Shown: positions 1-41,014, numbered from the stretch's first letter. The stretch is DNA of 64,000 nt from an uncultured Bacteroidota bacterium (GCA_903863935.1 CAIPDV010000099.1:7342-71341), one strand, 5' to 3'. A program made the numbers and translations. Notes: generated by a model not told the origin, from the sequence alone.

Positions 1-1
1 A

Positions 2-892: not shown

Positions 893-916
893 GCATTGTA
901 AAAGACTCTTACTTGA

Positions 917-950: not shown

Positions 951-1019
951 TTTTTCTTGTTAATAAATAAGCCCGAAGGCAGAAAATTTGCAGAAGTTTA
1001 CTAAATACCTTCGCAGAAT

Positions 1020-3962: not shown

Positions 3963-3978
3963 TCAGTACATTAGCCGT

Positions 3979-5949
3979 ATGAATTTCTTGAGGAATTTGA
4001 AAGAAATGCCTTTATCCCAAAAGGTATTTTATATAATAATGCTCCTATTCGGGTGTATATTTTTTACAACCCTAATAGGCAATCATTATTACTTCCGCAC
4101 CTATGCTTTTGATTACGGAGTTTACAATTTTGCATTTTGGGATTATGCACACTTCCATGTAAGTTTAATTCCATGCCTTGAAGTGGTCGGCAATTCACGA
4201 ATGACATTTATGCAAGATCATTTTTCATTAACATTCTGGTATTTTGTTCCTTTATTTTGGATTTTTAACTGGTTAACAGGATCATATACGCTACTTATTC
4301 TTTTAGCACTTTTCATTTTATGGAGTGGTTGGGCTACCTACAAATTAATAAAATTAAAGACCAATGATGAGTGGCTGGCAGTAATTTCAGTGTTGTATTA
4401 TTTTTTGTTACAAGGTCGATACAGTTCCTTTGCTTCAGACTGTAATATTTTAATAATAATATGTTGTTTTGTGCCTCTGTTTTTATTTTATTTCGAATTG
4501 AAGAAATATGTAGTTGCAGGTATTCTGTTAATTCTTCTTTTATTTTCCCGTGAAGATATGCCAATTTGGTTTATTTTCATTTTCCTTGTAATTGGCACGT
4601 GGCATTGGAAAGATAAGAGGGTTCTCGCACTTTGTGTGGGAGGTATTTTAGTTTGCATTGTTTACTTCATTGTTTTATTCAAGGCGTTTATTCCAATGCT
4701 CGAAACTCCAAATAAACCATATACATTATTTCAATATTCTGTATTAGGTAAAACTCCCACAGAAGCTTTGGGTTATTGTATAATGCACCCTATTGATACT
4801 TTTAAGCTATTATATATAAACCAATTCCACAACCCTGTTTTTAATAATGTAAAGGAAGAATTTTACCTTGTGTATCTTATATCAGGAGGATTTATTTTGT
4901 TTTTTCGACCCCAGTATTTTATTTGGTTTATTCCAGTTATTGCCCAAAAAGTATTTAATGATGATGAAGGTCGTTGGGGAATTAATGGTTATTATTCAAT
5001 TACCATAGTTACCCTTTTGCCAATTTCTGTTTTCCTTATTATTTCGAAATTTAAATTAAGATGGCTTCGGTATTCCTTTTCAATATTAGTTTGTATTATG
5101 GCTTTATCAGTTACTTGGTATAAAATGAATATTAATAATCGGGCTGTTCCCTGGGGAACTACAATAAAGGAGAATATGTTTGACCCAGCTTTTTTTCATC
5201 CTGATTATGATGCGGGTTTAATTCATAAGGTCCTTAAATTAATTCCTCCTGATGCAAAATTATCGGCTTCTTCATCCATTCTTCCACATGTGTCGCAGCG
5301 GAGTTATATTTATGAGTTTCCGGATTTTAAAGGGGCTGACTATATTGCGGCGTTTACTTTCAAAGATTATTATGTTTCGAGTGACAGTGCCTATTCAATG
5401 TTTTTAAATCATTTGATTTTTTATCCCGGTTGGGATATCGTCTCTTATATTCCTCCTTTTATTTTACTTAAGAAAAATAAAAATGGAACTTATGTAAATA
5501 AAGTTTTCGACAGTATTGAATGTGGTGCTGAATATATTGCTTCTGATAAAAAGCATCTAATTACATCTGATGGTGAATTTACAGACAATCCTGAAACCCG
5601 CGACAGTTCTGTAAAACGGAATGGATGTTATTCATGTAAAGTAAGCAGTAAGAATCAATTCGGATATACTTATCACGGTGTGAATTTTAAAACGGGAGAT
5701 TTTTTGAAAATAACGGTATGGAAATATCCTGCAATTAAAGATACCGGTAACCTGATTGTATCCTGGGGAAAAGACATTGGTAAATTTACTTTTAACGGGA
5801 TTAAAAAGGATTCTTTAGGTTGGGAAGAGTTGGAATTGTATATAATGGTGCCTAAAGTTCGCTCAGATTTTAAAGTATTTGTTATGAATGATAAGAGTAA
5901 ACCAATTTGGTTCGATGATTTAAAAATTGTGAAGTGCTCTGTGAAATGA
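3979..5949 (+). CDS. Polytopic membrane protein (DUF2079 / GT-C-like) with a C-terminal extracytoplasmic beta-rich domain
   Basis: At least 10 predicted TM helices in the first ~430 aa, then a soluble ~200-aa tail ending ...KPIWFDDLKIVKCSVK. The tail resembles the C-terminal domain of the 707-aa protein at 9027..11150 (…AYFDDLSITIYP). Confidence 0.5.
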   Translation: MNFLRNLKEMPLSQKVFYIIMLLFGCIFFTTLIGNHYYFRTYAFDYGVYNFAFWDYAHFHVSLIPCLEVVGNSRMTFMQDHFSLTFWYFVPLFWIFNWLTGSYTLLILLALFILWSGWATYKLIKLKTNDEWLAVISVLYYFLLQGRYSSFASDCNILIIICCFVPLFLFYFELKKYVVAGILLILLLFSREDMPIWFIFIFLVIGTWHWKDKRVLALCVGGILVCIVYFIVLFKAFIPMLETPNKPYTLFQYSVLGKTPTEALGYCIMHPIDTFKLLYINQFHNPVFNNVKEEFYLVYLISGGFILFFRPQYFIWFIPVIAQKVFNDDEGRWGINGYYSITIVTLLPISVFLIISKFKLRWLRYSFSILVCIMALSVTWYKMNINNRAVPWGTTIKENMFDPAFFHPDYDAGLIHKVLKLIPPDAKLSASSSILPHVSQRSYIYEFPDFKGADYIAAFTFKDYYVSSDSAYSMFLNHLIFYPGWDIVSYIPPFILLKKNKNGTYVNKVFDSIECGAEYIASDKKHLITSDGEFTDNPETRDSSVKRNGCYSCKVSSKNQFGYTYHGVNFKTGDFLKITVWKYPAIKDTGNLIVSWGKDIGKFTFNGIKKDSLGWEELELYIMVPKVRSDFKVFVMNDKSKPIWFDDLKIVKCSVK

Positions 5950-7419
5950 TTACTTCTTTTTGAAGATCCAAACACCATAATCCATTCCACCAAGAACAGT
6001 AAATTTTTCCTTGGGATCGAACCTACGAAGCAAAGTAAGATTAGGATTTTTCAATAAAGTATCTAATTTAATTTTGCCTTCATTCGGGCCATAGTGGCTA
6101 TCCCAGATCATAATACTTCCTTGCGGCATATTTAAGTCGGGTCGTTGTGAATTCATTCCCCATAGTTCACCCCTTTTTGCAGTATCATAGGGGTCAATAT
6201 TAAGGCTGGGAGTAATATAAGGGGCCAGGTAGAATATCTTTTTATTTGCATCAGGGGTTTGCTTCAACCAGTCAGTGGCATCTTTAATAACCACTTCTTC
6301 TGCACCAAGTTTAAATGGTATTTTGTACCATAAATCATAAGGGGCGTAAAGAACAGCAATAACAAAAACAGTCGCAATCCATGTTTTAACTTTAGTAAAT
6401 TTAAATACATCAGGAATCAAATTAATAAACTGTAAGCCTCTTAATGCAATAATTGAGGCGAGTGGTATGAGTGGTGCCATGTATCGCAACAATCCTAGTG
6501 TAGGGAAGAAGCCTGTAGCCCAAATTATAGTGTGCCCTACGAATATGTTAAACACGCAACCATACACCAACAAAACCTCCTCTGTCCTATACGCATTTTC
6601 TGTGCCGGTTGCAACTCTTCTGTTTAAATATTCACCTCCAATAAACCATAGAACACCGGCGATAATCAGAATTAAAAGTCCTAATCCAACAATATCATGG
6701 GCAGGTGCTATATAACTTATGAGTGAACCTTTAACATTACCATAGGCATGTGAGTTGCTTTCTGAATAAGGGTTTTGGTCTAATAACCAGTGAAGATTCT
6801 TATAGTAAATTGCTCCAATAAGCGTAATTATAATAGTCCCTACCGGAAGTAGAAAATTAGCCAAGTATTTCCTTTTCAGAATATAATAAAAGATAAACAG
6901 TGGTAATACAAAAATAAACTCGGCCCGTACGAATGGCAGAAAGGAAAATAGTATTGCACTTAAATAATACCGTTCATTCATGATGAGCCAAATACATCCA
7001 ATCAGCATCATGGAAAACATTGGTTCTGTTAATCCGGAATTTACAACGGAAAAGTAAATCGGTGCAGAAAATGTAAAAATAATAGCAAGATAAGGGAAGG
7101 GAATTGCCAGTTTTTCCGCTATTCTATAGGCAAAGTAAGATGCTCCAAGCCCGCAGAGAATATTGTATAGAGTTATTCCTTTTAATCCGAATTGTGCAAA
7201 AGGAGATGAAAGCATGGTAAAGAATGGTTTTCCCCAATCATCAACAAACAATCGGTGGTGGTGCCATGAATAGCGTGATATCAGATAGTGTGCTACCCCG
7301 TCTCCAGTGTCATATGTAGAAGAAGAAAAGAACAGGATAATACAAGCATAAACAAATAAGATTGCCAGTATTGAAAAGGCAATGAACTTTGTATTGGTTG
7401 CGTTTTTTATTAATTGCAT
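5950..7419 (-). CDS. GT-C fold membrane glycosyltransferase (PMT/ArnT-like, GT39/GT83-type)
   Basis: Multi-TM N-terminal region. The first extracytoplasmic loop has HHRLFVDDWGKPFF, resembling the PMT-family VFDEVHFGKF loop motif. Soluble C-terminal domain. Separated by 2 bp from the next gene, so a tight operon. Confidence 0.55.
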   Translation of the reverse strand: MQLIKNATNTKFIAFSILAILFVYACIILFFSSSTYDTGDGVAHYLISRYSWHHHRLFVDDWGKPFFTMLSSPFAQFGLKGITLYNILCGLGASYFAYRIAEKLAIPFPYLAIIFTFSAPIYFSVVNSGLTEPMFSMMLIGCIWLIMNERYYLSAILFSFLPFVRAEFIFVLPLFIFYYILKRKYLANFLLPVGTIIITLIGAIYYKNLHWLLDQNPYSESNSHAYGNVKGSLISYIAPAHDIVGLGLLILIIAGVLWFIGGEYLNRRVATGTENAYRTEEVLLVYGCVFNIFVGHTIIWATGFFPTLGLLRYMAPLIPLASIIALRGLQFINLIPDVFKFTKVKTWIATVFVIAVLYAPYDLWYKIPFKLGAEEVVIKDATDWLKQTPDANKKIFYLAPYITPSLNIDPYDTAKRGELWGMNSQRPDLNMPQGSIMIWDSHYGPNEGKIKLDTLLKNPNLTLLRRFDPKEKFTVLGGMDYGVWIFKKK

Positions 7420-7421
7420 GG

Positions 7422-9026
7422 TTAGTTTAAGTTTCTTAAATCATAAATAGATACATTTTGATAATTGCCTATCTTGTATTTTAAATATGGTTTAATCCAG
7501 GAATAATCAAGATAGGACGGTTTTGAAACAATCAGATATTTTGCACCAAGTCGTATAAACTCATTAATTCTTCCCTCATTTGCAAAGCCGCCATAACCAA
7601 AGTCGTCAAACCCTTTTTGATCCATAAGGTATAGAGTAATATTAATGCTTTGGTCAGGAATGCTTATTACTTTATCGGTTCTTGAAATTCCAAGCCTCCT
7701 TAAATAAGGAGTTATCGTTTCAAAGGCCTTGGTTTCATTAACGTAAGTGAAATGGTACCAGTTCCAGAAATCGGAATTTCGATCATCTATGATAAAATTA
7801 TATTTTACGATAGGGGTGGAAGTTGAATACCTGATATTTGTTTCTACAGCGCAGTAGTATATATTGAATAGTAAGAACAGGCTAAAAATAAATTTTAGTT
7901 TTACTGAGCTGAAAATGGCAGGGTAGTTATCCTTAAGGAAAATTAAGAATGCCACCAAGGTTGCAGGAACAAAAATTAAAAGATTAATCAGGTAATAGTC
8001 ATGTACATTCAGAACCTGGAACCACAGCACTAAATAGAGGATTATTCCTGTAAAGAGCATAGTTAAAAACCAAAGATAAAACTTGCTGATCTTTTTATGG
8101 TTGATCAGAAGAGATACGAATAGCAGAAGTGTTAGAAACAGTATAGGCATACTGAAATATTGCGGAAGTAAAAGGGTGTATAATTTAACAAGCGTGTCAT
8201 GAATCGCACTTTTGTCAAGTTTCCATAAAGGAAGAATATCTGTACTGAATAAACCTGCGTTATGAATTTGGTTGTAATGTATTGAATATAAAGTCCATGA
8301 AAACATAAGCAGTCCCGCAGCCAGTATGGTTAATACTTGTATTAAAGGACTAGTGAAAAGTTTGTTGTTTTTGTTTTTTCGAAAAGTGATGATCTCATAA
8401 AACAAAATAAATATGAGAGGAATGAAAGAAATAAGCCCCGTTATTTTTGTAAGGCCTGCTAACAAGAAAATGAAAATGGAAACATAAAAAAAGAGCATAC
8501 GTTTGGTTTTATAATAACGGACAAAATAGTACCATCCCATTAATGCAAAACTTAAAGCGGGAACATCCATTAAAAAATTATTGGAATAAACCGCAAAAAT
8601 TGGTGATGTGAAAAGTAAAATTGAAATAAGTAGTGCCCATGCTCCGTCACTTGTCATTTCTTTTACCAGTAAGAATAAAGCGTACAAACCTGAAAAGGCA
8701 ATAAAAGTATCAAGCATCCGGTAAATGAATTCATGGTAACCAAATATTTTCCATAGTATAGCAACTAAATAATAAATTAAAGGACATTCACTTGTGCTGG
8801 TCATTCCATTGCCGGAAGGCCCCAGCATATGAACTGAAGGACTGAGAAAGTGCATTCCTTCCTGGTAGTAATTCAGTGCAATAGAAAGACAATCGGTCTG
8901 TCTCCATTGGTGAATAGAGTAAGGGCGCATCCAAAAAATATTTTGATAGGAATATAAGAAGGCCACGCCAATAAGTACAATGAAAAAAAGTAAATCCCAT
9001 TTTTTGGGAGTTTTGAATAGTGCCAT
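7422..9026 (-). CDS. GT-C-like polytopic membrane glycosyltransferase (ArnT/PMT-like)
   Basis: About 12 TM helices. Basic/aromatic first loop (RPYSIHQWRQTDCLSIALNYYQEG) resembles the ArnT-type loop. C-terminal soluble region. Directly abuts the flanking GT-C genes. Confidence 0.5.
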   Translation of the reverse strand: MALFKTPKKWDLLFFIVLIGVAFLYSYQNIFWMRPYSIHQWRQTDCLSIALNYYQEGMHFLSPSVHMLGPSGNGMTSTSECPLIYYLVAILWKIFGYHEFIYRMLDTFIAFSGLYALFLLVKEMTSDGAWALLISILLFTSPIFAVYSNNFLMDVPALSFALMGWYYFVRYYKTKRMLFFYVSIFIFLLAGLTKITGLISFIPLIFILFYEIITFRKNKNNKLFTSPLIQVLTILAAGLLMFSWTLYSIHYNQIHNAGLFSTDILPLWKLDKSAIHDTLVKLYTLLLPQYFSMPILFLTLLLFVSLLINHKKISKFYLWFLTMLFTGIILYLVLWFQVLNVHDYYLINLLIFVPATLVAFLIFLKDNYPAIFSSVKLKFIFSLFLLFNIYYCAVETNIRYSTSTPIVKYNFIIDDRNSDFWNWYHFTYVNETKAFETITPYLRRLGISRTDKVISIPDQSINITLYLMDQKGFDDFGYGGFANEGRINEFIRLGAKYLIVSKPSYLDYSWIKPYLKYKIGNYQNVSIYDLRNLN

Positions 9027-11150
9027 CTAATTTCGATCGGTTTTAGTTTGGGTAAAATTAGAATTATTCAAATTCATAGGATAAATTGTTATTGATAAGT
9101 CATCGAAATACGCATACCCATTTCCATAATAGAAAAGGTATAAATTAATGTTACCATCATTAAAACTTGAAGGAACTAAGCATTTGTATTCTATCTGTTT
9201 CCATCCATGTGAATCAGAATCAATTACTGCGTGGCCAAAGGCATAAAAATCACCGTTGCTTTTTGATGTGAAAGCAATTCCTCCCCATCCATCATCCGAT
9301 TTCCGCCATATCTTCGTTACTATTAAACTACCCCGTTTTGAATGTATTGCGTAATTTAAGGCGAATTGATTATCATGATTCATCAGCACTGAATTATTAC
9401 GGGAATGATGTTCTTTAGTGGTAAGTGAATTGATGCCGCCGAGAGTGTCTTTTCCATCTGATGAAATAGATTTTGATTTATCTGAAGTTAATCTTTCAAG
9501 GTCAAAGTTTATTTCAACCGGATTGTCCATCATTGTTTTGGCCATCGTTTGGTTGCCATCCAGTTCATATATAAATTCATTTGACTCTTTGCGAGCATAA
9601 ACTAACTTTTTTTGTGCAATAGTGTCTTTACCCCAAATACAAAATTCTTTCAAGAAGGAGGCTCTGCCAGCAGAATCCTGCTCATTAAAGTATGCAATTA
9701 TTTTCTTGTGTTTTGAAAAAAGCTCGGGCATATAAAAAATATCGTCCCAATGTGAAACACTTTTACTTGGATGTATAGTTCGGTAGGTGTTGGGGTAAAT
9801 ACGTTTCAAAAACTCCCAATATTTATTATTGAAATTCCCTGCATAGGCAACACCTAATTCAATGGCAGGTTCAATTCTTGAACTAGCAAAACCTGCCGTA
9901 ATTACTATAGGGGTGTCACCGTATTTGTCAATAAAATCAGCCGTTTCAGAAGAAACCGCTTTCGGAAGATTAAAGAAAAAGCCTTTTAAATCTGGAATTA
10001 CAAGGTAAGCAGAAAAAAGGTAAATTATAGCAGGGAAAGCAAATTTTAGCTGTGGTGTTTTCACGTTAATAAAATCACGTAATAAACCAGCAGATCCGGC
10101 AATTATTAATGGCAGGCAAAGCTGAATTGGAATAAGGTAGTGGAATGAGTAGTGTTTTGCAACAAGTATTATAAGAATTAATGATGATGCAAAAATGCCA
10201 GTTAGAAGGCGCAAGTAAATGCTATTTGCAGGTTGAATTTGCTTGCGTTTTATAAATCCAGTTATAAGTGAAATGATCATAAGCACATAGATTGATGTGA
10301 AAAACATATCCTTAGAAAATATTTTACCCAAGTTAGTTGTGAACTCTGATGAGTTTGCAAAGCCCTTTTCTCCTTGTCCATAACTTCCTTTGTGTGTGGC
10401 AATGTTGGTGAGCCAGTCAACTATTTGACTCATAACTGGAATTGCAGGAGAAATGAATACAAGCAAGAATAAAACTAAATATTGTAATCTACTCCGTGTT
10501 CCAGGCAATAAGAATACAACTAGAAAGAACAAAGGAAAGCAAGTGTACTTGCATGTTATTAAGAATGCGGAAAAAGAGGCGTAAATTAATAATTGCTTAA
10601 TACCTGTTTTTCTTTGCGATGATTTATCTGAATAAATAAGATTGCAAAATAAGTAGGCAATAAAAGGTACTCCAAATAATAAAATAAATGATTCAGGTGA
10701 TGGAGCAGAAGAAGTAAGATATTCTTTTGCAATAAGAGGAGTTAATTGAAAAAGCAATGCCAAAGGAAGATTAGCAGTTCTTTTCAATACATAATACCCC
10801 GTATATAATGTAATTAAAACCCAGAGTAGGGAAATGGCGACACATATTGCGTAAAGGTAACTCTCTGGATGCAGCAAAAGATCCTGATAGAGTGGAATAC
10901 TATGGTTGAAAAAATGCTTAACATATATAACTAATGCGCAAAAATACTGCACCGGTATCCCTGGATTATCAATATAATGGATGGATAATTTTCCTGCTCC
11001 AATGTTCATGCCGGTAAACAAATAAATGTAAACCGGATCTGCACAAAGCGTGTAAAATGGCCTCCAGTTAATAAAAAATACTCCTGAAAAAAATAAATAA
11101 ACTACCGGAAGTATTAATAGCAAAAAATACTTCCTGTTAATTGAATTCAT
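9027..11150 (-). CDS. GT-C-like polytopic membrane glycosyltransferase with a C-terminal beta-sandwich (carbohydrate-binding-like) domain
   Basis: About 12 TM helices in the N-terminal 400 aa. The ~250-aa soluble tail ends NLYLFYYGNGYAYFDDLSITIYP. Confidence 0.5.
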   Translation of the reverse strand: MNSINRKYFLLLILPVVYLFFSGVFFINWRPFYTLCADPVYIYLFTGMNIGAGKLSIHYIDNPGIPVQYFCALVIYVKHFFNHSIPLYQDLLLHPESYLYAICVAISLLWVLITLYTGYYVLKRTANLPLALLFQLTPLIAKEYLTSSAPSPESFILLFGVPFIAYLFCNLIYSDKSSQRKTGIKQLLIYASFSAFLITCKYTCFPLFFLVVFLLPGTRSRLQYLVLFLLVFISPAIPVMSQIVDWLTNIATHKGSYGQGEKGFANSSEFTTNLGKIFSKDMFFTSIYVLMIISLITGFIKRKQIQPANSIYLRLLTGIFASSLILIILVAKHYSFHYLIPIQLCLPLIIAGSAGLLRDFINVKTPQLKFAFPAIIYLFSAYLVIPDLKGFFFNLPKAVSSETADFIDKYGDTPIVITAGFASSRIEPAIELGVAYAGNFNNKYWEFLKRIYPNTYRTIHPSKSVSHWDDIFYMPELFSKHKKIIAYFNEQDSAGRASFLKEFCIWGKDTIAQKKLVYARKESNEFIYELDGNQTMAKTMMDNPVEINFDLERLTSDKSKSISSDGKDTLGGINSLTTKEHHSRNNSVLMNHDNQFALNYAIHSKRGSLIVTKIWRKSDDGWGGIAFTSKSNGDFYAFGHAVIDSDSHGWKQIEYKCLVPSSFNDGNINLYLFYYGNGYAYFDDLSITIYPMNLNNSNFTQTKTDRN

Positions 11151-11284
11151 AGCTATGCATCGTTAACAAAATAAAAGATATGGTACTTAAATATTAAAAG
11201 AAATTATGGTTTTCAAATTAATCAAAAACAAAAATAACAAGAATTATCACGTAATTCCATTTAGTTCTTGTTAATGGTTTTTGG

Positions 11285-12418
11285 TTAGGGCATATGTTTG
11301 TTTAAAATTTTTAAAGCAGAATCGGGAAAACCCCAAGCAAGGTCATTTAACTTTGCTTCGGTTGATTCAACAATAATTATATCATTTTTTTTAATTGATT
11401 CACCAAGATTAAAAGTATTTATCCAATATTGGGGTTTATTATCCGAAGGGAAAACCTGAGCATAATAATAACATAGGTCTCCGGATGTAAAATTGGCCCA
11501 AAAATTATAATGCTTTTCGAGTATTAAGATATAACTGTCGCCAACAACGAGCGTTGAATTTTTTTTAACTGAAGTATCATTCGGGTTTGAAGTGTGCGGA
11601 TGTCCAAGTTTATCTTGTTTCATTGTAAACAATAAATTCAGATCATCCTCCAATTCAATCTCATCATCATTGGCATCATCAAAGGTTACATTGTTTTTCC
11701 ATAGTGTATGTGGCAATTTTTCGTGTCTTAGTTTTTCAAGCATTGTCATAATTGAATCACCAGCAATACATGCCCCATAGGCTGTCCAATGACTTCCATT
11801 CTTGTAAAACAAAGGATATTTTGATTTCTCTTTGTTCTCAATAAAATACTTGTTGAAATCAATATAATTCAACCCCTCAGTTTTTAAAAGTTTTTTACAA
11901 ACGTCGTAGTTTATTGAATCAGCAACCTTGTATCTCTCCGGAACATCTTCTGGATTGAATAAGGTTTTTGAAGGTGCAATAACAAGTAGCAGGGTTTTAT
12001 TCATTTTTGCAAAAGTGTCTTGAAGAATCTTTAATTTGTCAAGCCGGGCTTTTAGTTTGATTGTTCCAATAAAATTCCATCCTGCAAACGATTCCATATA
12101 CCATTCTGGGAATAGGTCGTCGTTGTTGCCCATAATAAAGTCGGTTGAATTTATTTTGCTAAATAAGCTAAAATCAGCTTGGTTCCTGCTGCGAATAAAT
12201 AGATTTCGTAATCCAAATGTATCACTTAAATATTTTTCTTTATGTGTTTGATATTTTCCTGAAAACCAACCATCAGTTGAAAAAAATGTATCCGCTACTT
12301 GTGTATATGCACCCGCCAGGCGTTTTATTTTAAATAAATGGAAATTACTTTGCAGCAATGGCAAAAATAGAAAACTTAATAAGACAATAAAGATTAGTTT
12401 CAGAAATGGCTTTTTCAT
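11285..12418 (-). CDS. AlgX/AlgJ/PatB-like SGNH-fold O-acyltransferase partner protein (paralogue 1 of 3)
   Basis: N-terminal signal anchor. Conserved GWFSGKYQ…FGLR…RNQ.DFSLF block and a GSHWT.YGA (DxHW-type) motif, plus a GDS(Y/F) motif. Sits in the same operon as the MBOAT gene. Confidence 0.55.
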   Translation of the reverse strand: MKKPFLKLIFIVLLSFLFLPLLQSNFHLFKIKRLAGAYTQVADTFFSTDGWFSGKYQTHKEKYLSDTFGLRNLFIRSRNQADFSLFSKINSTDFIMGNNDDLFPEWYMESFAGWNFIGTIKLKARLDKLKILQDTFAKMNKTLLLVIAPSKTLFNPEDVPERYKVADSINYDVCKKLLKTEGLNYIDFNKYFIENKEKSKYPLFYKNGSHWTAYGACIAGDSIMTMLEKLRHEKLPHTLWKNNVTFDDANDDEIELEDDLNLLFTMKQDKLGHPHTSNPNDTSVKKNSTLVVGDSYILILEKHYNFWANFTSGDLCYYYAQVFPSDNKPQYWINTFNLGESIKKNDIIIVESTEAKLNDLAWGFPDSALKILNKHMP

Positions 12419-12432
12419 TTATTGGCGTAGGG

Positions 12433-13566
12433 TTAATTCATCACGTTTTTGTTCTTGCGTAATATTTTACTTACTTGCGCCGGGAAATCAAAACCCAATT
12501 TGGTAATATTGGCTTCGGTAGCTAAAAGTATAAAAACATCATTCTTTTTTAGTTCACTCTCTATATTCAGGTTATCATGTGTATCCTTATTACCTTTTGG
12601 GTAAACGTGCCAGGAATAATACCAAAAAATACCATTAGAGAAATAATCCCAGAAACTAAAATGATCACGCAAAGCCCAGAAAAAACTATCCCCCACAACC
12701 ATTGCAGATAAGTTGTTTTTGGTTGAATCTATATGTTCTAAAGGTTCAGGGTGGCCAAAAGGTTCGTGCTTGAAAGAAAATACTAGATTCATATCATTTT
12801 CCATTTCTAATTCATCTCCACTTGGTCTCTCTTGTATTATTTGGTTTTTCCAGGGTAAATGCTGCATTTTTATATTTCTTAAATTTTCAATTTTCGAAAT
12901 GATAGAATCTCCTGCTAAGTAAGCTCCGTATGATGTCCAGTGGCTGGCATATTTATAAAATAATGGGGCAAGGGCTTTTCCTTTAAGCGATAAAAAATAA
13001 GAGTTGAAGTCAATATAGTTTAATCCATCCATTTTCAACGTGTTTAAACTTATGAGGTAGTTAGACGAATCTCCTTTTCTAACCGAATCTGGCAGGTCTT
13101 CCTGGAAATAATTGTCCTTTGAGGGGGCAATAACAATAAGCAATGTTTTGTTGTGTTCGGCAAGAGAATCCTGAATCGCTTTAAGTATACCAAGCTTTTC
13201 TTTTAGTGCTTTTGAGCCTATAAAGTCTCTTCCTGAATAGGAATTAAAGTACCAGCCCCAGAAAATATCATTATTTTTCCCGATTACGAAATCATCGGCA
13301 TGTACTTGCTGAAAGAGTGAAAAATCAATCTGATTTCTTATCCTGATAAATATACTCCTCAGTCCGAACACATCGTGAAAATATTTGTCTTTTTTTATCT
13401 GGTATTTCCCTGAAAACCAGCCGCCAGATGTAAGTACAGTATCTCCCGAAAGTGTGAACATTCCTGATAAAGCCTTACAGTTTATTAAATTGAAGCGATA
13501 TTGAATGGCAGGAAATAGTAAGCAACCAAAAAGAAAAATAAATAGTGATTTGCGAAAAAGGTTCAT
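12433..13566 (-). CDS. AlgX/AlgJ/PatB-like SGNH-fold O-acyltransferase partner protein (paralogue 2 of 3)
   Basis: Same architecture and motifs as paralogue 1 (GWFSGKYQIKKDKY…, ASHWTSYGA, VVGDSFF). Diverged sequence, so not an assembly duplicate. Confidence 0.55.
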   Translation of the reverse strand: MNLFRKSLFIFLFGCLLFPAIQYRFNLINCKALSGMFTLSGDTVLTSGGWFSGKYQIKKDKYFHDVFGLRSIFIRIRNQIDFSLFQQVHADDFVIGKNNDIFWGWYFNSYSGRDFIGSKALKEKLGILKAIQDSLAEHNKTLLIVIAPSKDNYFQEDLPDSVRKGDSSNYLISLNTLKMDGLNYIDFNSYFLSLKGKALAPLFYKYASHWTSYGAYLAGDSIISKIENLRNIKMQHLPWKNQIIQERPSGDELEMENDMNLVFSFKHEPFGHPEPLEHIDSTKNNLSAMVVGDSFFWALRDHFSFWDYFSNGIFWYYSWHVYPKGNKDTHDNLNIESELKKNDVFILLATEANITKLGFDFPAQVSKILRKNKNVMN

Positions 13567-13567
13567 G

Positions 13568-14713
13568 CTAGTTTAATTGAGCGGTATTGGGCACTATTCC
13601 AAAAACCTTGCATGCAGCGTCAGCAAAACCCCAACCAATTTTACTAAGATTTATTTCTGTGGATTCTACCATGATCAGGTCTGCTTTGTTTATTGCATCG
13701 CGCAAATCCAGGCTATCTATATCAGCAGACTTATCTGCGCCCAAAGTGTAAACTGTTTTATAGTAATAGCAGAATTTAAAGGAAGAAAAACTGGACATAA
13801 GGTCATAATGTGCTTCAAGGTTAAGGATGTAACTATCTCCAATTATTAAAATAGAAGGTCTTTTTTGCTTTAGATTAATTGTGTCTTTGATCTGCGGGTG
13901 AGCGAGCATCTCGGTTGGAAAGCCAGAAAAAATATTTAGTTCGTTTGATAATTCAAGTTCATCTCCTTCAGCTTTACTTATAGTAACATTATTTCTCCAT
14001 GGGTAATGAGGGATTTTTATTGCACTTAAATATTCTAAAGCACCAATAATAGAATCGCCTGCAACACAAGCCCCATAATAACTCCAATGGCTTCCGTAAG
14101 CAGGAAATAGCGGGTAAGGACAAGTTTGCTTTAGTTTAATGAAATAATTTTCGAAATCAATGTGTACCAATCCTTTTTGTTTTGCTTTTTTCTCAAAAAC
14201 TTCATAATTGGTAGAATCGCCCTTTTTCGTCCCTTCGGGAAGGTTTTCCGGAGCATATATATCTTTCGATGGAGAGAAAACTACTAGCAAAACCTTGTTT
14301 CGTTTTGCTAAGGTATCTTGTAATAACTTAAATTCAGAAATGATATGATTTATTTTTGGGCTGCCAATAAAATCAAGCCCTTTATAAGTATCAATATACC
14401 AAGTGTTAAACAGAAAATGATTCTTGCCTTCAACTACATCCTGCGCATGAAATTGGTGGTAAAAACTAAAGTCAACCTGGTTTCGGCAGCGAATAAAAGC
14501 ACTTCTTAATTCAAAGTGATCGTTCAGATATTTTTCCCTATGTGTCTGATATTTGCCCGAAAACCAGCCGTTTAATGAGAAAGTGGTATCGTCGTTTAGT
14601 ACAAAGGTTCCGTCCAATGGCTTTTCGTGAAATACTGGAAAACTTCGCTGGAATAGAGACAAAGACAAGAAGACCAGGATAAAAATAAAAAGTATTTTAG
14701 GGATACTGAACAT
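13568..14713 (-). CDS. AlgX/AlgJ/PatB-like SGNH-fold O-acyltransferase partner protein (paralogue 3 of 3)
   Basis: Same architecture (GWFSGKYQTHREKY…, GSHWSYYGA, IIGDSYI). Separated by 1 bp from paralogue 2. Confidence 0.55.
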   Translation of the reverse strand: MFSIPKILFIFILVFLSLSLFQRSFPVFHEKPLDGTFVLNDDTTFSLNGWFSGKYQTHREKYLNDHFELRSAFIRCRNQVDFSFYHQFHAQDVVEGKNHFLFNTWYIDTYKGLDFIGSPKINHIISEFKLLQDTLAKRNKVLLVVFSPSKDIYAPENLPEGTKKGDSTNYEVFEKKAKQKGLVHIDFENYFIKLKQTCPYPLFPAYGSHWSYYGACVAGDSIIGALEYLSAIKIPHYPWRNNVTISKAEGDELELSNELNIFSGFPTEMLAHPQIKDTINLKQKRPSILIIGDSYILNLEAHYDLMSSFSSFKFCYYYKTVYTLGADKSADIDSLDLRDAINKADLIMVESTEINLSKIGWGFADAACKVFGIVPNTAQLN

Positions 14714-14728
14714 GCTTTCTTAAAATTC

Positions 14729-16159
14729 TTAAAACCTAAAATAGATAAATGGATTGAAGCCGCTGCCTGCAATATTCCCGACGGATAAAATAAATAGTAT
14801 CAGTGCAAGGAAAGCAGTTACCAGATGTCTTAAATTAGAGTACTCATGGGTGAAAACTCCATCCTGTATCTTCTGTGTCCATTTAAAAAAGGTGAAGAAT
14901 GCAAAAAAAGCAGCAATTATTAGCAGGGTATAAAATGCAGGGTCGGGTATAAACTTATATTCTTTTGGGTTTGAAATGAACATTCGCTTTATAAACTGAA
15001 TTGCATCACTAAATTTTTCAACCCTGAAAAATACCCAACCAATAATTACTATCAGGAAGGTTATAAAGGTTCTGAAAAATTTCCCGATCTTATCATATAT
15101 CTTTAATAAAAATGCTCTTTCAAGGGCTAGAAATGTACCATGATAGGCACCCCAGAAAACAAAATTCCATGAGGCACCATGCCACAAACCTGAAACAAGA
15201 AACACAAACCAAAGGTTGAAGTAGAGACGGAGTTTACTGTCAACACGGTTACCACCCAGTGGGATATATAGATAGTTTTTCATCCAACGCCCAAGCGACA
15301 TGTGCCATCTTCTCCAAAATTCAGTAATGCTTTGTGATGTATATGGGTTTTCGAAATTCTCAGGGAACTTAAATCCAATCATTCTGGCTAGGCCAATAGC
15401 CATGTCTGAGTATCCTGAAAAGTCAAAATAGATTTGGAAAGTATAGGCTAAAATGCCCATCCAAGCTGCGTATGCAGAAAGGTCTGCTGTACTCGTTTTG
15501 AAAACTGCATCTGCCAAAGCACCCATTTGGTTAGCAATTAATACCTTTTTAGCAAGTCCGATAATAAAGCGGTAGAAGCCTAGCAGGCGGTTCTCAGTAG
15601 TTTCATTTGCCGAACGGTCTGTTATCTGGTCTGCCAATTCATGATACCTGATGATTGGTCCTGCAATTAGTTTAGGGAATAGAATTATATACAGCTGATA
15701 ATTCCAGAAGTTATCAAGGGGTTTGTGCTCTCCCCGATATACATCTACTACATAAGTAATTGTTTCAAATGTATAGAAGGAAATACCAAGAGGAAGCACC
15801 AATTTAGTCCATCCTAAAGGATGCACATGGAAAATATGTGTTATAAATACGTCTACATTTTCTATAAAAAAACCTGAATATTTAAAATAGAATAGTAACC
15901 CGAGGTTCATGCAAACCGACACAGTGAGTAAGATTCTTCGGTAAAGCCTTGTCTGGGTATTATACATCCACTTAACAAGAAAGAAGTCTACCAGTGTAGT
16001 ACCTAGAATTACAAAAATAAATTTGGGTGCCCCCCAACTATAAAAGAAAATACTAAAAACCAGAACTACTACATTCTTCAGGAATTTAGGGGTGATATAA
16101 TAGACAAGTAAAAATACAGGTAAAAAATAAATGAGAAAAAGTATGCTGCTGAATATCAT
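14729..16159 (-). CDS. MBOAT family membrane-bound O-acyltransferase (AlgI/DltB/PatA-like)
   Basis: Polytopic protein with the MBOAT signature FWRRWHMSLGRWMKNYLYIPLGGNR and a conserved His region. Confidence 0.85.
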   Translation of the reverse strand: MIFSSILFLIYFLPVFLLVYYITPKFLKNVVVLVFSIFFYSWGAPKFIFVILGTTLVDFFLVKWMYNTQTRLYRRILLTVSVCMNLGLLFYFKYSGFFIENVDVFITHIFHVHPLGWTKLVLPLGISFYTFETITYVVDVYRGEHKPLDNFWNYQLYIILFPKLIAGPIIRYHELADQITDRSANETTENRLLGFYRFIIGLAKKVLIANQMGALADAVFKTSTADLSAYAAWMGILAYTFQIYFDFSGYSDMAIGLARMIGFKFPENFENPYTSQSITEFWRRWHMSLGRWMKNYLYIPLGGNRVDSKLRLYFNLWFVFLVSGLWHGASWNFVFWGAYHGTFLALERAFLLKIYDKIGKFFRTFITFLIVIIGWVFFRVEKFSDAIQFIKRMFISNPKEYKFIPDPAFYTLLIIAAFFAFFTFFKWTQKIQDGVFTHEYSNLRHLVTAFLALILFILSVGNIAGSGFNPFIYFRF

Positions 16160-16239
16160 ATAAGTTTAATAGATTAAATACAATAATAACATTTAAATGC
16201 TAATCATTATAGTATGAAATAGTAATAGAAACAATGCAA

Positions 16240-16938
16240 TTACATCACTTTTTTCCCGGCTACAAAGTCTTTCAGGTAGAACGGCTCATAATAGGCAACA
16301 TCAGTAAACTCTTTTTTAGCAAAGGATTCTTCTGCTAGTAAAATCATGTTTTGGGCAGATGCATGAATTTCATCCACCCAAATACAATTTGTATTTTCAA
16401 GAGGAAAAAGCTTTTTAAGTTTAGGCATTCCATCTCCTCCGAATGCTATAGTTGTGGTTTTTAGAATTTCACTAAATGAATTTTCATTAAGTATTTTTGC
16501 TTCTACCGGAAGGATCTCGTTGCCTTCACAAGAATAAATGCCTGTGTATACTTCCAATCTACGCGCATCTACAAGGGCGCAATAAAATATATCTTTCCTT
16601 CTAATAATTGATGCTAATGAAAGTGCCATTGCCTTAAGTGTCGGAACCGCAATAAGTGGTTTATTGAGTGAATAACAAAGCCCTTTAGCTGTTGATGTTC
16701 CAATTCTTAGACCTGTATATGATCCCGGACCAGTGCCTATGGCAATAGCATCCAATGTTTTCAAGTCATGGTGTTTGGTAATACTTGCAATAAATACAGC
16801 AAGTTTTTCAGCATGTGCATTTGGGATTAAGGATTCCTCCGAATTCACAATTTTCCCATCAATGGCAAGGGCCACAGAGCAAACAGCAGTTGATGTTTCT
16901 ATATTCAGTATTGTTGCCATTAATAAGCTATTGGCCAT
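16240..16938 (-). CDS. tsaB: tRNA threonylcarbamoyladenosine biosynthesis protein TsaB (YeaZ)
   Basis: The N-terminal ILNIETSTAVCSVAL and IAIGTGPGSYTGLRIGTSTAKGL motifs are characteristic of the TsaB/YeaZ family. Confidence 0.85.
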   Translation of the reverse strand: MANSLLMATILNIETSTAVCSVALAIDGKIVNSEESLIPNAHAEKLAVFIASITKHHDLKTLDAIAIGTGPGSYTGLRIGTSTAKGLCYSLNKPLIAVPTLKAMALSLASIIRRKDIFYCALVDARRLEVYTGIYSCEGNEILPVEAKILNENSFSEILKTTTIAFGGDGMPKLKKLFPLENTNCIWVDEIHASAQNMILLAEESFAKKEFTDVAYYEPFYLKDFVAGKKVM

Positions 16939-17136
16939 GCCTATAAGCTATTAGCCATTTTACAAAGGTATAATTCCCGGATAAACTGAAAAAAAATTAA
17001 GCTGGTATATTGTATTCACAAATAATTAGTAATATTGCATCGCGTTCCCCGCATTTATTTCCAAAGACATATTATTTCCCGCTAGTATTTTCCCCTCCCT
17101 TCTTAGCAATCAAATTATTTATTTAAAAACATATTT

Positions 17137-40294: not shown

Positions 40295-41014
40295 TTAATT
40301 GACCTTTATAAAGCGCATTTTAAGTACCCCAAAAATGGCTTCTTTAAAAATTTTACCACTCATTTTTGATACTCCGATTTCACGGTCGGTAAAGGTTATA
40401 GGTACTTCTACAATTTTAAATCCTTTTTTATAAGTCCTGTACTTCATTTCAATCTGAAAAGCATATCCTATAAAATGGATATCATCAAAATGAATGGCTT
40501 CAAGCACTCTACGCCTGTAACACTTAAAACCGGCAGTGGTGTCTTTAACATTCATCCATAAAACCATACGGACATACAACGAGGCAAAGTATGACATTAG
40601 CACTCTTTTGTAATCCCATTTGGCAATGTGGCCTCCCTTTACATACCTGGACCCGACTGCGAGATCAGCACCATTGACACAAGCGGCTTTCAAACGTAAC
40701 AGGTCGTCGGGGTTATGGGAAAAGTCAGCATCCATTTCAAAAATAAATTCATAGCCATGTTCCAATGCCCACCTGAAACCTGCAATATATGCAGTCCCCA
40801 AACCTTGCTTACCGCTTCTTTCGACAATAAAAAGTCTCCCGTAGAATTCATCCTTCATTAAGGTTTTAACAATATCCGCTGTACCATCCGGTGAGCCATC
40901 GTCAATAACAAGCAAATTGAAATTGCCTTCTAACGACATTACTTTCCGGGTGATATTTTCAATATTACCCTTTTCGTTATAAGTAGGAATTATTACGAGG
41001 CTGTCTGAAGACAT
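40295..41014 (-). CDS. GT2 polyprenol-phosphate mannose/glycose synthase (Dpm1-like)
   Basis: N-terminal IIPTYNEKGNIE…LLVIDDGSPDGTADIV GT2 motifs. Size and layout match dolichol/polyprenol-phosphate sugar synthases. Confidence 0.8.
   Translation of the reverse strand: MSSDSLVIIPTYNEKGNIENITRKVMSLEGNFNLLVIDDGSPDGTADIVKTLMKDEFYGRLFIVERSGKQGLGTAYIAGFRWALEHGYEFIFEMDADFSHNPDDLLRLKAACVNGADLAVGSRYVKGGHIAKWDYKRVLMSYFASLYVRMVLWMNVKDTTAGFKCYRRRVLEAIHFDDIHFIGYAFQIEMKYRTYKKGFKIVEVPITFTDREIGVSKMSGKIFKEAIFGVLKMRFIKVN

Follow-up and report, generated by a model that had tools for sequence, protein, structure and literature searches.

Seven co-directional genes on the minus strand of an uncultured Bacteroidota bacterium combine an MBOAT acyltransferase with AlgJ-like proteins and GT-C glycosyltransferases, and we wondered whether they form a single locus that builds and decorates one cell-surface glycoconjugate. 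This had been proposed in a preliminary description of the 64,000-nucleotide stretch of DNA analysed here (the window). Our answer is that the block is a mosaic of two separable and swappable modules, which on balance we consider slightly more apt to serve the modification of exported glycans than not.

Gene content of the block

The ORF list agreed exactly with the seven minus-strand genes of the preliminary description (Table 1). From the MBOAT end of the block to the 489-aa end, the intergenic gaps are 15, 1, 14, 134, 0 and 2 nt; the single 134-bp gap was thereby confirmed, whereas the spacing elsewhere, described as 0-14 bp, measured 0-15. No nucleotide separates the block from the convergent ORF. 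Since homologues were found for all seven ORFs in sequence searches, and the AlgJ-like genes and the 707-aa gene gave dN/dS values of 0.05-0.12 against the sister contig L092, we regard these ORFs as real genes and not as chance open frames.

Table 1. Features of the island and its surroundings, with positions in the window.
Feature	Position	Strand	Evidence or remarks
GH3 (NagZ-like) + beta-lactamase-fold (PBP4B/AmpH-like) fusion, 980 aa	1020..3962	+	Pfam 6.5e-81 and 5e-42; NCBIfam matches
DUF2079 membrane protein, 656 aa, convergent	3979..5949	+	Pfam DUF2079 9e-30
GT87/Gpi18-like membrane glycosyltransferase, 489 aa	5950..7419	-	homology to 707-aa family; names of relatives
PMT/PMT_2-family GT-C glycosyltransferase, 534 aa	7422..9026	-	Pfam PMT 1.5e-8, PMT_2 2.7e-8
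GT-C-fold glycosyltransferase, 707 aa	9027..11150	-	family without Pfam model
Junction of two modules, 134 bp	11151..11284	-	weak AU-rich hairpin; -7-box-like TATTTTTG
AlgJ-like paralogue c, 377 aa	11285..12418	-	Pfam ALGX E 3e-16; AF2 model
AlgJ-like paralogue b, 377 aa	12433..13566	-	Pfam ALGX E 9e-16
AlgJ-like paralogue a, 381 aa	13568..14713	-	Pfam ALGX E 9e-14; one TM segment
MBOAT acyltransferase, 476 aa	14729..16159	-	Pfam MBOAT E 5e-35; WHG His327; C-terminal FIYFRF
tsaB	16240..16938	-	TIGR03725 1.4e-44; 80 bp upstream of MBOAT gene, same strand
GT2 resembling polyprenyl-phosphate sugar synthases, 239 aa, outside block	40295..41014	-	Pfam Glycos_transf_2 7e-28

The HMM searches suggested earlier matched MBOAT, ALGX (three times), PMT/PMT_2 and DUF2079, but left the 707-aa and 489-aa proteins without a Pfam match, so that the GT-C nature of these two needed other evidence. 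The protein described as a GH3/beta-lactamase-fold hydrolase facing the block indeed carries both Pfam domains, and the neighbour at 3979..5949 belongs to DUF2079. The Pfam matches listed for the window contig included no Alg8/Alg44, BcsA or AlgF/WssG; unlike alginate and cellulose operons, the block lacks AlgF/WssG-like genes as well as synthase genes for alginate, cellulose or any other known polymer.

The MBOAT-AlgJ cassette

A motif search placed His327 of the MBOAT protein in a WHG motif and also found WRRWH, while residues 471-476 form an exact C-terminal FxYxxF with Tyr473 as the shuttle tyrosine. This acyl-shuttle motif, the PatA mechanism and the role of the conserved His have been defined previously (PMC12148441), and an F.Y..F C-terminus was present in 74/74 MBOAT orthologues from the fetched loci. 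Together with the Pfam match, these features bear out the MBOAT assignment, and on its sequence the protein is best placed in the polymer-acylating MBOAT-SGNH class. An MBOAT gene paired with a single AlgJ-like gene recurs widely as a cassette in Bacteroidia: the former lies directly upstream of the latter in 56/62 testable loci, and MBOAT orthologues with 55-71% identity occur in other Bacteroidia loci with very different neighbourhoods.

Each AlgJ-like paralogue has a single N-terminal TM anchor, and paralogue a shares 45% identity with c and 42% with b. The comparison of AlphaFold models with PatB and AlgX that had been suggested was run on paralogue c, whose AF2 model (pLDDT 89.9) matched AlgJ (4o8v, 1e-10), AlgX (4knc, 2e-9), PatB1 (5v8d, 1e-6) and 4nzk (4e-4) in Foldseek, at an identity to solved structures of the AlgJ/AlgX/PatB1 type of only 10-17%. 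Going by this model, the 377-381-aa proteins have the circularly permuted SGNH-like fold of AlgJ/AlgX/PatB1.

Of the two signature motifs defined for AlgJ, PhiPhiPhiPxK and (R/K)TDTHW (PMC4148444), the first is kept as VIAPSK, with K151 nearly invariant in the family, and this motif, the His, the Trp and the GDS Ser are unchanged in all three paralogues (K151, D187, H210, W211 and GDS-S295 in paralogue a). His210, Trp211 and D187 are invariant across the AlgJ-like family, as is the GDS Ser295 in 36/36 members, where it aligns with KDSF of PatB1. The second motif with its triad Asp was not found in the window paralogues: a, b and c read GSHW, ASHW and GSHW, and KNGSHW of paralogue c aligns with RTDTHW of AlgJ. 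Of the 36 family members, 31 have Gly at the Asp position of D-x-H-W and 3 have Ala, while Ser and Asp occur there once each. The earlier notion of three SGNH-fold AlgX/AlgJ/PatB-like paralogues therefore holds for the fold (Foldseek, Pfam ALGX) but not for a complete SGNH triad, from which the Asp is absent. Since PaAlgJ with the D193A substitution no longer acetylated alginate in vivo (PMC4148444), the AlgJ-like proteins may act in another way or with less activity. AlgJ triad mutants, on the other hand, retained ~20% of esterase activity in vitro (PMC4148444), which makes it plausible that Ser and His act as a dyad or that a different acid, for instance D187, takes part.

Several features are shared with the systems AlgI/AlgJ/AlgX (alginate), WssH/WssI (cellulose), PatA1/PatB1 (Bacillus secondary cell wall polysaccharide) and PatA/PatB (peptidoglycan), namely the MBOAT His with the FxYxxF tyrosine shuttle, the adjacent membrane-anchored periplasmic partner of AlgJ/AlgX/PatB1 fold, and the arrangement of PhiPhiPhiPxK with His-Trp and GDS-Ser. 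AlgJ and AlgX also provide a precedent for an MBOAT with multiple SGNH-like partners. The block departs from these MBOAT-SGNH systems in its three AlgJ-like paralogues that lack an AlgX-type C-terminal CBM, in the Gly or Ala at the canonical Asp position of this family, and in having GT-C glycosyltransferases as neighbours.

The GT-C proteins and a candidate donor synthase

Both machineries had been thought to be present in triplicate, with the GT-C enzymes as a PMT/ArnT-like trio. Only the AlgJ-like genes turned out to be paralogues, and the GT-C proteins fall into three different families. What remains of the trio is the PMT/PMT_2 assignment of the 534-aa protein and the homology between the 489-aa protein and the 707-aa family (97.4% in hhalign, E 9e-12). 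A polytopic N-terminal membrane domain with GT-C fold was found, and Pmt4, ArnT, AftA and AftB were among the best structural matches. The 707-aa protein, whose family has neither a Pfam nor an NCBIfam model, combines ~10 TM segments with an alpha/beta domain in the periplasm and, at its C-terminus, a CBM-like beta-sandwich (~residues 545-695); the 489-aa protein is a short form without the CBM-like tail. The latter gave a weak NCBIfam match (1.4e-7) to the family AZOBR_p60025, which is labelled 'cell surface glycopolymer formation', and its relatives are annotated as Gpi18-like mannosyltransferase, GT87 or RgtA-D-like, one of them (P0050) with PF09594. The 534-aa protein also has ~10 TM segments, and both of its Pfam matches exceeded the gathering score; because Pfam detected no MIR domain on it, it is better termed PMT_2/ArnT-like than a eukaryote-type PMT.

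Alignments point to an invariant Asp shortly after TM1, at D38 and D61 in the 707-aa, D40 in the 489-aa and D45 in the DUF2079 protein, while in the 534-aa protein the conservation of D45 is confined to the consensus. Profile-profile tests gave no match between the TM cores of the 534-aa and 489-aa proteins, nor between either core and DUF2079. The C-terminal beta-sandwiches of the DUF2079 and 707-aa proteins are homologous (27% identity over 148 aa, E 2e-8), and C-terminal CBM-like domains are a feature that the block GT-C type has in common with GT136 ORF12, EmbC and AftD (PMC11127046).

The best structural relatives of these enzymes use polyprenyl- or dolichyl-phosphate-monosaccharide donors, as in GtrA/GtrB/GtrX (O antigens), ArnC/ArnT, CsbB/GtcA/YfhO, GacI/GacL and GT136 ORF12-ORF15 (Citrobacter youngae). 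A further likeness to such three-component systems is that small GT2 proteins (239-242 aa) resembling polyprenyl-phosphate-sugar synthases are encoded next to GT-C genes within the sister islands L008 and L010; a GT2 is also present in L002 and L017, and GT2-GT-C fusions exist for both the 707-aa and the 489-aa families (P0028, P0139). The window block itself does not encode GT2, flippase and GT-C together: there is no GT2 and no GtrA/MATE-type flippase gene between 1020 and 16938, and no flippase was recognised anywhere. For the GT2 outside the block, a candidate source of the donor, the best NCBIfam matches were AglJ, PpgS, dolichyl-P-hexose transferase and ArnC, all under the cut-offs. The block differs from three-component systems also in its three GT-C families plus a fourth facing them, instead of one, in its unmodelled 707-aa family, and in the link to an MBOAT-SGNH cassette.

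A variable island and its possible function

We compared the block with related loci, all of which are metagenomic contigs, so that chimeric assembly is possible. tsaB forms the left border in every one of L008-L011, L092 and L093, and the DUF2079 and GH3/beta-lactamase flank is conserved in L008, L009, L010, L092 and L093; between these shared flanks, the contents vary among L008, L009, L010, L011, L092 and L093. L092 carries the same seven genes, of which the PMT and 489-aa genes are, like the DUF2079 gene, 100% identical to the window, whereas identity drops to 75-83% for the AlgJ-like genes and the 707-aa gene, so that this comparison, too, is a mosaic. The arrangement of three AlgJ-like genes beside GT-C genes occurs in both L092 and L093. 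The GT-C trio is present without MBOAT/AlgJ in L009, MBOAT/AlgJ is accompanied by different GT-C and GT2 genes in L010, and L008 lacks the cassette as well as the PMT and 489-aa genes. Synteny thus contradicts the idea of one obligate locus.

The junction between the modules is the least conserved stretch relative to L092 (46% identity), and its equivalent is 196 nt long in L092 and only 9 nt, between the cassette and the 707-aa gene, in L010. The putative promoter element noted in Table 1 is of Bacteroidetes type and lies ~86 nt ahead of the start codon that follows, and the two modules may therefore be separate transcription units. The hairpin and U-tract reported for this gap are present, but with a dG of -16.3 kcal/mol and a z of -0.79 the hairpin is no better than those of shuffled sequences, and a terminator scan made no call on it.

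Among the other loci, L002 and L017 share the order MBOAT-AlgJ-GT2(ArnC/PgfS-like)-...-PMT_2-DegT, with an inserted gene for a GNAT in L002 and a second GT2 in L017; the ArnC/PgfS-like GT2 proteins scored 196-232 bits. L026 has the order MBOAT-AlgJ-AlgJ-PMT_2 followed by DUF2079, its second AlgJ-like gene lying ~260 nt from PMT_2, and orthologues of the 534-aa protein adjoin MBOAT-AlgJ in L002, L014, L017, L020 and L026. In raw counts, a recognisable GT-C-like neighbour was present in 13/50 large MBOAT-AlgJ loci and absent from 37/50. Because of these 37 loci and of the GT-C trio on its own in L009, a shared substrate of the two modules is not required. Unbiased clustering of the cassette neighbours ranked polyprenyl-P-sugar-synthase-like GT2 proteins first (17 loci), a mixture of 597-aa-like membrane proteins and small lipoproteins second (13 loci) and PMT_2 third (7 loci). 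PBP1a was a recurrent neighbour in 6 loci, fewer once duplicate contigs were removed. A small CBM-like lipoprotein, with a domain common to the GT-C proteins, travels with the cassette, and the AlgJ-like genes vary in copy number and are weakly conserved (30-44%).

We favour, with somewhat better than even confidence, a variable Bacteroidia envelope island that extends from tsaB to the DUF2079-GH3/beta-lactamase pair and serves the glycosylation and O-acylation of glycans after export. MBOAT would draw on acyl-CoA in the cytoplasm for an acyl group, which is probably acetyl, and His327 would load this group onto Tyr473 at the periplasmic face. The AlgJ-like proteins would receive the acyl group on Ser295, assisted by His210, and hand it on to a hydroxyl group on a glycan in the periplasm; the three paralogues may serve different positions or acceptors, or act in a relay of AlgJ/AlgX style. 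The GT-C enzymes would add single sugars from polyprenyl-phosphate-sugar donors to the exported acceptor, for which the CBM-like domain of the 707-aa protein is a candidate binding domain. A GT2 would supply the donors, its gene lying elsewhere in this genome but within the island in sister genomes. The acceptor, possibly a single glycan for both modules, would most likely be a polysaccharide, such as an LPS O-chain, a capsule/EPS or a lipoglycan, and independent exchange of the modules between relatives would generate surface-glycan diversity.

A serious but distinctly less probable reading is that two unrelated systems lie side by side in a recombination hot spot, the cassette acylating its own conserved polymer (peptidoglycan, in the manner of PatA/PatB, or an EPS made elsewhere) and the GT-C genes decorating another molecule, with their adjacency due to insertion in a permissive island. 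This would account for the missing cassette in L008, L009 and L011, although all three retain the flanks and the 707-aa gene, and for the many large cassette loci without a recognisable GT-C-like gene. The conservation of MBOAT in diverse neighbourhoods is what a conserved substrate would lead one to expect, and the recurrence of PBP1a beside the cassette, the NagZ-like/PBP4B-like fusion at the island flank and the possible promoter box agree with it too. Such independence is harder to reconcile with the lead of GT2 and GT-C-type genes in the unbiased ranking, with the short distances of the cassette to GT-C genes in L010 and L026, and with the travelling CBM-like lipoprotein, while the variable AlgJ-like genes fit a variable acceptor and not peptidoglycan.

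The nature of the acceptor bears on another, rather improbable alternative, in which the GT-C enzymes act on proteins (PMT-like O-mannosylation) or on lipid A/core (ArnT-like) and the AlgJ-like proteins acylate that glycoconjugate. Although the PMT/PMT_2 match, the structural resemblance to Pmt4 and ArnT and the Arn-like gene set of L002/L017 (GT2, DegT aminotransferase and PMT_2, with GNAT in L002) point this way, the CBM-like domains of the 707-aa and DUF2079 proteins suggest a glycan chain (PMC11127046), the 534-aa protein has no MIR domain in Pfam, and the block contains no Arn-type sugar-nucleotide genes. We give still less credence to the view that the AlgJ-like triplet, having lost the triad Asp, is catalytically degenerate and consists of scaffolds or binding proteins. 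Gly or Ala replaces this residue in 34/36 family members, with Asp in 1/36, and without its equivalent alginate is not acetylated in vivo (PMC4148444); against this stand the invariant His210, Trp211, Ser295 and D187 and nearly invariant K151, the low dN/dS, the intact catalytic and shuttle motifs of the partner MBOAT, and the residual in vitro activity of AlgJ triad mutants (PMC4148444), which leaves room for a dyad or another acid.

As the preliminary description had suspected, no characterised system with this gene combination was found in the literature searched; we regard the locus as known kinds of enzyme in a new combination, rather than as a new kind of system. A parallel for several GT-C families acting in series from polyprenyl-P-sugars in a periplasm-equivalent space is offered by the mycobacterial and corynebacterial sets (PimE, MptA-C/GT87, AftA-D and EmbA-C with Ppm1), to which the GT87-type names of the 489-aa relatives, the AftA and AftB structural matches and the CBM-bearing GT-C enzymes also relate. 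These sets come from another phylum, whereas the cell here is Gram-negative, and they show no sequence-level orthology to the block, in which nothing favoured polymerisation over the addition of side chains. A bolder extension, which we hold to be quite speculative, is that a periplasmic GT-C battery, LM/LAM- or arabinan-like and with the large 707-aa family among its members, builds or extensively remodels a Bacteroidia surface lipoglycan or polysaccharide with a shared CBM-like targeting module that is new to description; that an Asp-less AlgJ branch would turn one MBOAT tyrosine shuttle into three acylation specificities; and that the AlgJ triplet plus the 707-aa segment would be an exchangeable serotype cassette. 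The 707-aa type comprises at least 3,500 cluster representatives.

Gene content of the block and the acylation module

The block lies on a 124-kb metagenomic contig (ERZ1426822), and its seven co-directional minus-strand genes were recovered by the ORF table at exactly the coordinates proposed in the preliminary description. The one long gap is indeed 134 nt, but the remaining spacers, put at 0-14 bp, measure 15, 1, 14, 0, and 2 nt, so that one exceeds this range. Because all seven ORFs have homologues and the divergent ones are under purifying selection (dN/dS 0.05-0.12 against L092, a sister contig with the same seven genes), we can conclude that they are genuine genes. Positive selection on the divergent cassette was ruled out at these ratios, with dS saturated. 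A TsaB gene lies upstream, and back-to-back with the end of the block is a plus-strand ORF with a DUF2079 domain, spaced by 16 nt from a gene with GH3 and beta-lactamase domains (domains by Pfam). For relatives, the annotation goes no further than uncultured Bacteroidia or Bacteroidales, and T9SS-type genes elsewhere in the window are compatible with a placement in Bacteroidia.

The first gene encodes an MBOAT protein (Pfam, E 5e-35) with the conserved WHG histidine at His327 and FIYFRF as its final six residues; an F.Y..F C-terminus was present in 74/74 MBOAT orthologues from the fetched loci. PatA was shown to auto-acetylate the invariant Tyr of its C-terminal FxYxxF, after which the acetyl-Tyr peptide is the donor to the SGNH partner, a mechanism proposed for all MBOAT-SGNH pairs (Anderson et al., PMC12148441). 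The three neighbouring 377-381-aa proteins all matched ALGX (Pfam, E 1e-14 to 1e-16), each with one predicted N-terminal TM anchor, and the model of AlgJ-like c (pLDDT 89.9) matched the structures of AlgJ (1e-10), AlgX (2e-9), PatB1 (1e-6), and a DHHW-family protein. The Pfam match, His327, the FIYFRF end, and this fold bear out the earlier assignment of an AlgI/PatA-type MBOAT with an AlgX-like partner.

The proposed AlgX/PatB-like SGNH identity of these partners was upheld in part. Profile alignments to solved proteins showed that the AlgJ motif PhiPhiPhiPxK is kept, and column counts over 36 family members showed that His210-Trp211 and the GDS Ser295 are invariant. However, in the motif (R/K)TDTHW, which reads DTHW in AlgJ and DHHW in AlgX and PatB1, the Asp column held Gly in 31 members and Asp in a single one, the others having Ala (3) or Ser (1). 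The family has the AlgJ fold and the MBOAT pairing, yet it fails the canonical-triad test. In PaAlgJ this Asp is a triad member whose replacement (D193A) abolished alginate acetylation in vivo, and AlgJ triad mutants still showed esterase activity in vitro, at about 20% (PMC4148444). The invariant D187 may substitute for the absent triad Asp.

The paralogues of the window fall in one subclade, b and c each with separate orthologues, and the triplet stems from old lineage-specific duplications. In single-copy orthologues the C-terminus is extended by ~50 helical residues that include a DSxxTLDAIW motif; this extension is absent from all three window paralogues and duplicated in the L005 protein. 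At 418-426 aa, the three copies of L093 have room for it.

Distribution of the MBOAT-AlgJ cassette

The cassette was surveyed with AlgJ-like queries against species genomes and metagenomes, followed by tblastn. An MBOAT gene (55-71% identity) stood immediately 5' of the AlgJ-like gene (30-44%) in 56 of the 62 loci whose upstream sequence was long enough. A single AlgJ-like copy was the commonest state, and five loci had two; among the surveyed loci, three copies occurred only in the window, L092, and L093. When neighbours were ranked by unbiased clustering of all adjacent ORFs, GT2 came first (17 loci), with best matches to polyprenyl-P-sugar synthases (Dol-P-hexose transferase, PpgS, ArnC, PgfS). 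It was followed by a cluster of 597-aa-type membrane proteins and ~170-aa lipoproteins (13 loci), and then by PMT_2 (7), PBP1a (6), sulfatase-domain membrane proteins (5), DegT (5), and DUF2079 (5). Six queries recognised a GT-C-like gene in 13 of 50 cassette loci of at least 10 kb. Two loci have the order MBOAT-AlgJ-GT2-...-PMT_2-DegT, with a GNAT gene (L002) or a second GT2 (L017) between GT2 and PMT_2, and in L026 the order MBOAT-AlgJ-AlgJ-PMT_2 faces DUF2079. No GT-C genes were seen in the other 48 kb of the window, too little sequence for a background rate. The association of GT-C genes with the cassette is a suggestive one, recurrent in the neighbour ranking.

Of note, two homologues carry labels outside Bacteroidota, which could reflect mis-binning or horizontal transfer: a locus binned as Akkermansia (L007, CAZFCR010000168.1), whose cassette MBOAT is 60% identical to that of the window, and P0186 from a Spirochaetota MAG (28% identity to AlgJ-like c).

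GT-C-type proteins and a shared CBM-like module

The 534-aa protein (PMT534) matched PMT/PMT_2 above gathering (Pfam, E about 1e-8), and the 707-aa and 489-aa proteins had no Pfam match. Since PDB sequence searches with the 707-aa family profile and with the 534-aa and 489-aa proteins gave only noise, fold prediction was needed for the GT-C candidates. In the AlphaFold2 model of the 707-aa protein (pLDDT 82, pTM 0.81), all significant full-length Foldseek matches were GT-C enzymes (PglB, EmbC, DPY19, ArnT, STT3, AftB), and D38, P39, and D61, directly past the first TM segment, are invariant in a family alignment of 25 homologues. Searching 1.84 billion cluster representatives with the family profile gave 3,557 members at E<=1e-3 and, at the stricter cut-off of E<=1e-30, 1,448. 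Because none of the 25 scanned members had a membrane-domain Pfam match better than E 1e-3, the 707-aa type constitutes a large GT-C family for which no curated model exists. A link of this protein to the missing Bacteroidota O-oligosaccharyltransferase seems unlikely, its best fold matches being monosaccharide-donor GT-Cs rather than OSTs.

By hhalign, the 489-aa protein shares ancestry with the 707-aa family (97.4%, E 9e-12). Its first loop contains an invariant Asp, D40, and it weakly matches an NCBIfam 'cell surface glycopolymer formation' family; its relatives are named at source as Gpi18-like mannosyltransferase, GT87, or RgtA-D-like. Homologues of the 489 family were found in Sunxiuqinia indica and Hymenobacter nivis. 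No relation was found by hhalign between the PMT534 alignment and the 489-aa family (3.5%), and with DUF2079 only the C-terminal beta-sandwich of that family was matched, the TM core remaining unmatched, in alignments too shallow to count against a relation. The supposed PMT/ArnT-like identity holds by profile for PMT534, extends as a modelled GT-C fold to the 707-aa protein, and becomes GT87/Gpi18-like for the 489-aa protein. The GT-C machinery is not present in triplicate, as had been claimed, since the three are different GT-C-type families and not mutual paralogues.

GT2 (Glycos_transf_2) fusions occur among members of both the 707-aa and 489-aa families, a Rosetta-stone sign hinting that these proteins may work with a GT2 donor synthase. 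A 239-aa GT2 resembling polyprenyl-phosphate sugar synthases adjoins an amidohydrolase gene elsewhere in the window, with just 24% identity to the GT2 in the island of L010. A further membrane protein of ~600 aa with ~13 hydrophobic segments recurs in the island and near cassettes; it has no Pfam match and a weak NCBIfam match to the Leptospira LA_3751/LA_3752 putative glycosyltransferase family, and may represent another unmodelled GT-C-like family.

A CBM-like beta-sandwich ending in Y.DD[FL].I, for which Pfam has no model, is common to four GT-C-type families. That of the 707-aa C-terminus, spanning residues ~545-695, is homologous to the C-terminus of the DUF2079 protein (27% over 148 aa, E 2e-8) and to the tails of long (~640 aa) 489-family members. 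The Y.D(D/N)[FL] tail was also found in an L030 protein distantly related (29% identity) to the 597-aa protein of L008, and in stand-alone ~170-aa lipoproteins (signal peptide plus Cys) adjoining cassettes. The module is a second link between cassette and GT-C genes. A polysaccharide acceptor is favoured mainly because the CBM on the GT-C enzymes GT136 ORF12, EmbC, and AftD binds acceptor polysaccharide (PMC11127046).

Coordinates of the features discussed (identities are nucleotide identities to L092)
Feature	Source	Position	Strand	Remark
MBOAT	window	14729-16159	minus	476 aa
AlgJ-like a	window	13568-14713	minus
AlgJ-like b	window	12433-13566	minus
AlgJ-like c	window	11285-12418	minus
134-nt gap	window	11151-11284	minus	weak hairpin, U-tract
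707-aa protein	window	9027-11150	minus
PMT534	window	7422-9026	minus	534 aa
489-aa protein	window	5950-7419	minus
DUF2079 protein	window	3979-5949	plus
GH3/beta-lactamase protein	window	1020-3962
CBM-like module	window	9027-9500		707-aa C-terminus
CBM-like module	window	5480-5949		DUF2079 C-terminus
CBM-like module	L002	9065-9583
CBM-like module	L019	7054-7557
CBM-like module	L062	11527-12030
CBM-like module	L037	11499-12020
AlgJ-like with extension	L001	9974-11290
AlgJ-like with extension	L002	1433-2740
AlgJ-like with extension	L005	7210-8664
AlgJ-like with extension	L010	8702-9991
~600-aa membrane protein	L008	8045-9838	minus
~600-aa membrane protein	L011	14406-16217	minus
~600-aa membrane protein	L012, L030, L034, L040, L078
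GT2 fusion	P0028			1004 aa, homologue of window 9027-11150
GT2 fusion	P0139			744 aa, homologue of window 5950-7419
239-aa GT2	window	40295-41014	minus
~1,495-aa protein	window	34459-38946	plus
Tandem genes	L008	1-2069
Tandem genes	L010	1-2895
Identity about 100%	window	1-9015		GH3/beta-lactamase, DUF2079, 489, PMT534
Identity 67-90%	window	about 9016-15200		707, gap, AlgJ c/b/a, MBOAT 3' end
Identity 94-100%	window	15212-17310		MBOAT 5' end, tsaB
Identity 63-87%	window	beyond 17311		rho and onward

A mosaic island and the proposed pathway

Loci found through 707-aa homologues had shared flanks (rho and tsaB; DUF2079 and GH3/beta-lactamase) and differing contents between them, except that the rearranged L011 keeps the rho-tsaB flank with no DUF2079-GH3 pair seen downstream. 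L009 has 707-PMT_2-489 and lacks MBOAT and AlgJ; L008 has the 597-aa membrane protein (opposite strand), 707, DUF6311-like, and GT2 genes and lacks the cassette. L010 has MBOAT-AlgJ-707-DUF6311-GT2 with an AlgJ/707 junction of 9 nt, and L093 has MBOAT and three AlgJ genes, PMT_2 on the opposite strand, and two 489-type genes, but no 707 gene. These differences indicate that the block is a composite of separable cassette and GT-C genes with the 134-bp gap as the module junction.

The hairpin in this gap was rejected as a terminator (z -0.79, no better than shuffles; no call by a terminator scan). Sigma-70-type promoter matches numbered 47 against a shuffle expectation of 56.6, thus falling below it, with a model not appropriate for Bacteroidota. 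Past the hairpin, the U-tract shares bases with TATTTTTG; this sequence matches the Bacteroidetes -7 box TAnnTTTG and lies ~86 nt 5' of the 707-aa start codon. Another such box lies ~32 nt 5' of tsaB, and none was found in the 80-bp tsaB-MBOAT spacer.

Nucleotide comparison of window 1-21200 with L092 1-21160 gave a segmental pattern, with identity breakpoints at the 707/PMT534 gene boundary and within the MBOAT gene. Amino acid identity was 75% for the 707-aa protein and 79/83/82% for AlgJ-like c/b/a, and dS was >1 for rho, AlgJ-like a, AlgJ-like c, and the 707-aa gene, 0.75 for AlgJ-like b, and 0 for PMT534. From this pattern it follows that the 707-aa gene and the three AlgJ genes are exchanged together in a single segment, which hints at a specificity cassette, although the second divergent tract spans housekeeping genes. 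Assembly chimerism is a possible source of the mosaic. Exact proteins were found on 10 contigs for the 489-aa protein, on 12 for the genes at 31 kb and 51 kb, on 3-4 for MBOAT, the 707-aa protein, and the gene at 24.6 kb, and on 7-9 for the L092-type 707-aa protein, and these counts suggest two alleles segregating in one population.

The gene identities, folds, motifs, predicted topology, and modular synteny that we observed directly can be combined into a model in which both modules jointly glycosylate and O-acylate an exported glycan. A GT2 (island-encoded in L008 and L010, here possibly the 239-aa candidate) would load a sugar on undecaprenyl phosphate, and a flippase would export it. The 707-aa, 534-aa, and 489-aa enzymes would then add sugars to the exported glycan, held by the CBM-like domain. 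Acetyl groups would pass from acetyl-CoA via His327 to Tyr473 of MBOAT, and the three AlgJ-like proteins would accept them on Ser295 and place them onto the glycan, with differing specificities or as a relay; module swapping would diversify the surface. We consider this model slightly favoured. The chief alternative, two independent systems merely sharing one variable island, draws on the same synteny that qualifies the one-locus proposal, since cassette and GT-C genes are separable in loci such as L009 and L008; in its favour, that proposal has the same seven genes in L092. We regard the alternative as rather unlikely.

The components themselves are not new in kind, being MBOAT-SGNH acylation and GT-C periplasmic glycosylation. 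Their combination was not considered a characterised system, and we likewise found no characterised Bacteroidia system in the literature searched, which held no description of an MBOAT-SGNH and GT-C combination, an Asp-less AlgJ branch, the 707-aa family, or the shared CBM-like module. To our knowledge, almost nothing is known of how environmental Bacteroidia modify their envelope glycans after export. A widespread MBOAT-AlgJ cassette without the canonical SGNH Asp can test the generality of the Tyr-shuttle/Ser-His-Asp model; the locus also provides a large GT-C family without a profile model; and the CBM-like module, on four GT-C families and small lipoproteins, could offer a bioinformatic and biochemical handle on the acceptor glycan. 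The naturally mosaic island resembles a serotype-type locus and bears on phage and predator recognition. Should both modules turn out to share a single polymer as substrate, the locus would be the first in which MBOAT-SGNH acylation is described as coupled to GT-C glycosylation.

Upstream of rho, L008 and L010 carry tandem genes with PTL_trimer, PKD_6, and ALK_LTK_GRD (glycine-rich) domains, which are absent from the equivalent region of the window. The ~1,495-aa protein of the window, with no Pfam match recorded, is encoded 3' of a triose-phosphate isomerase gene.
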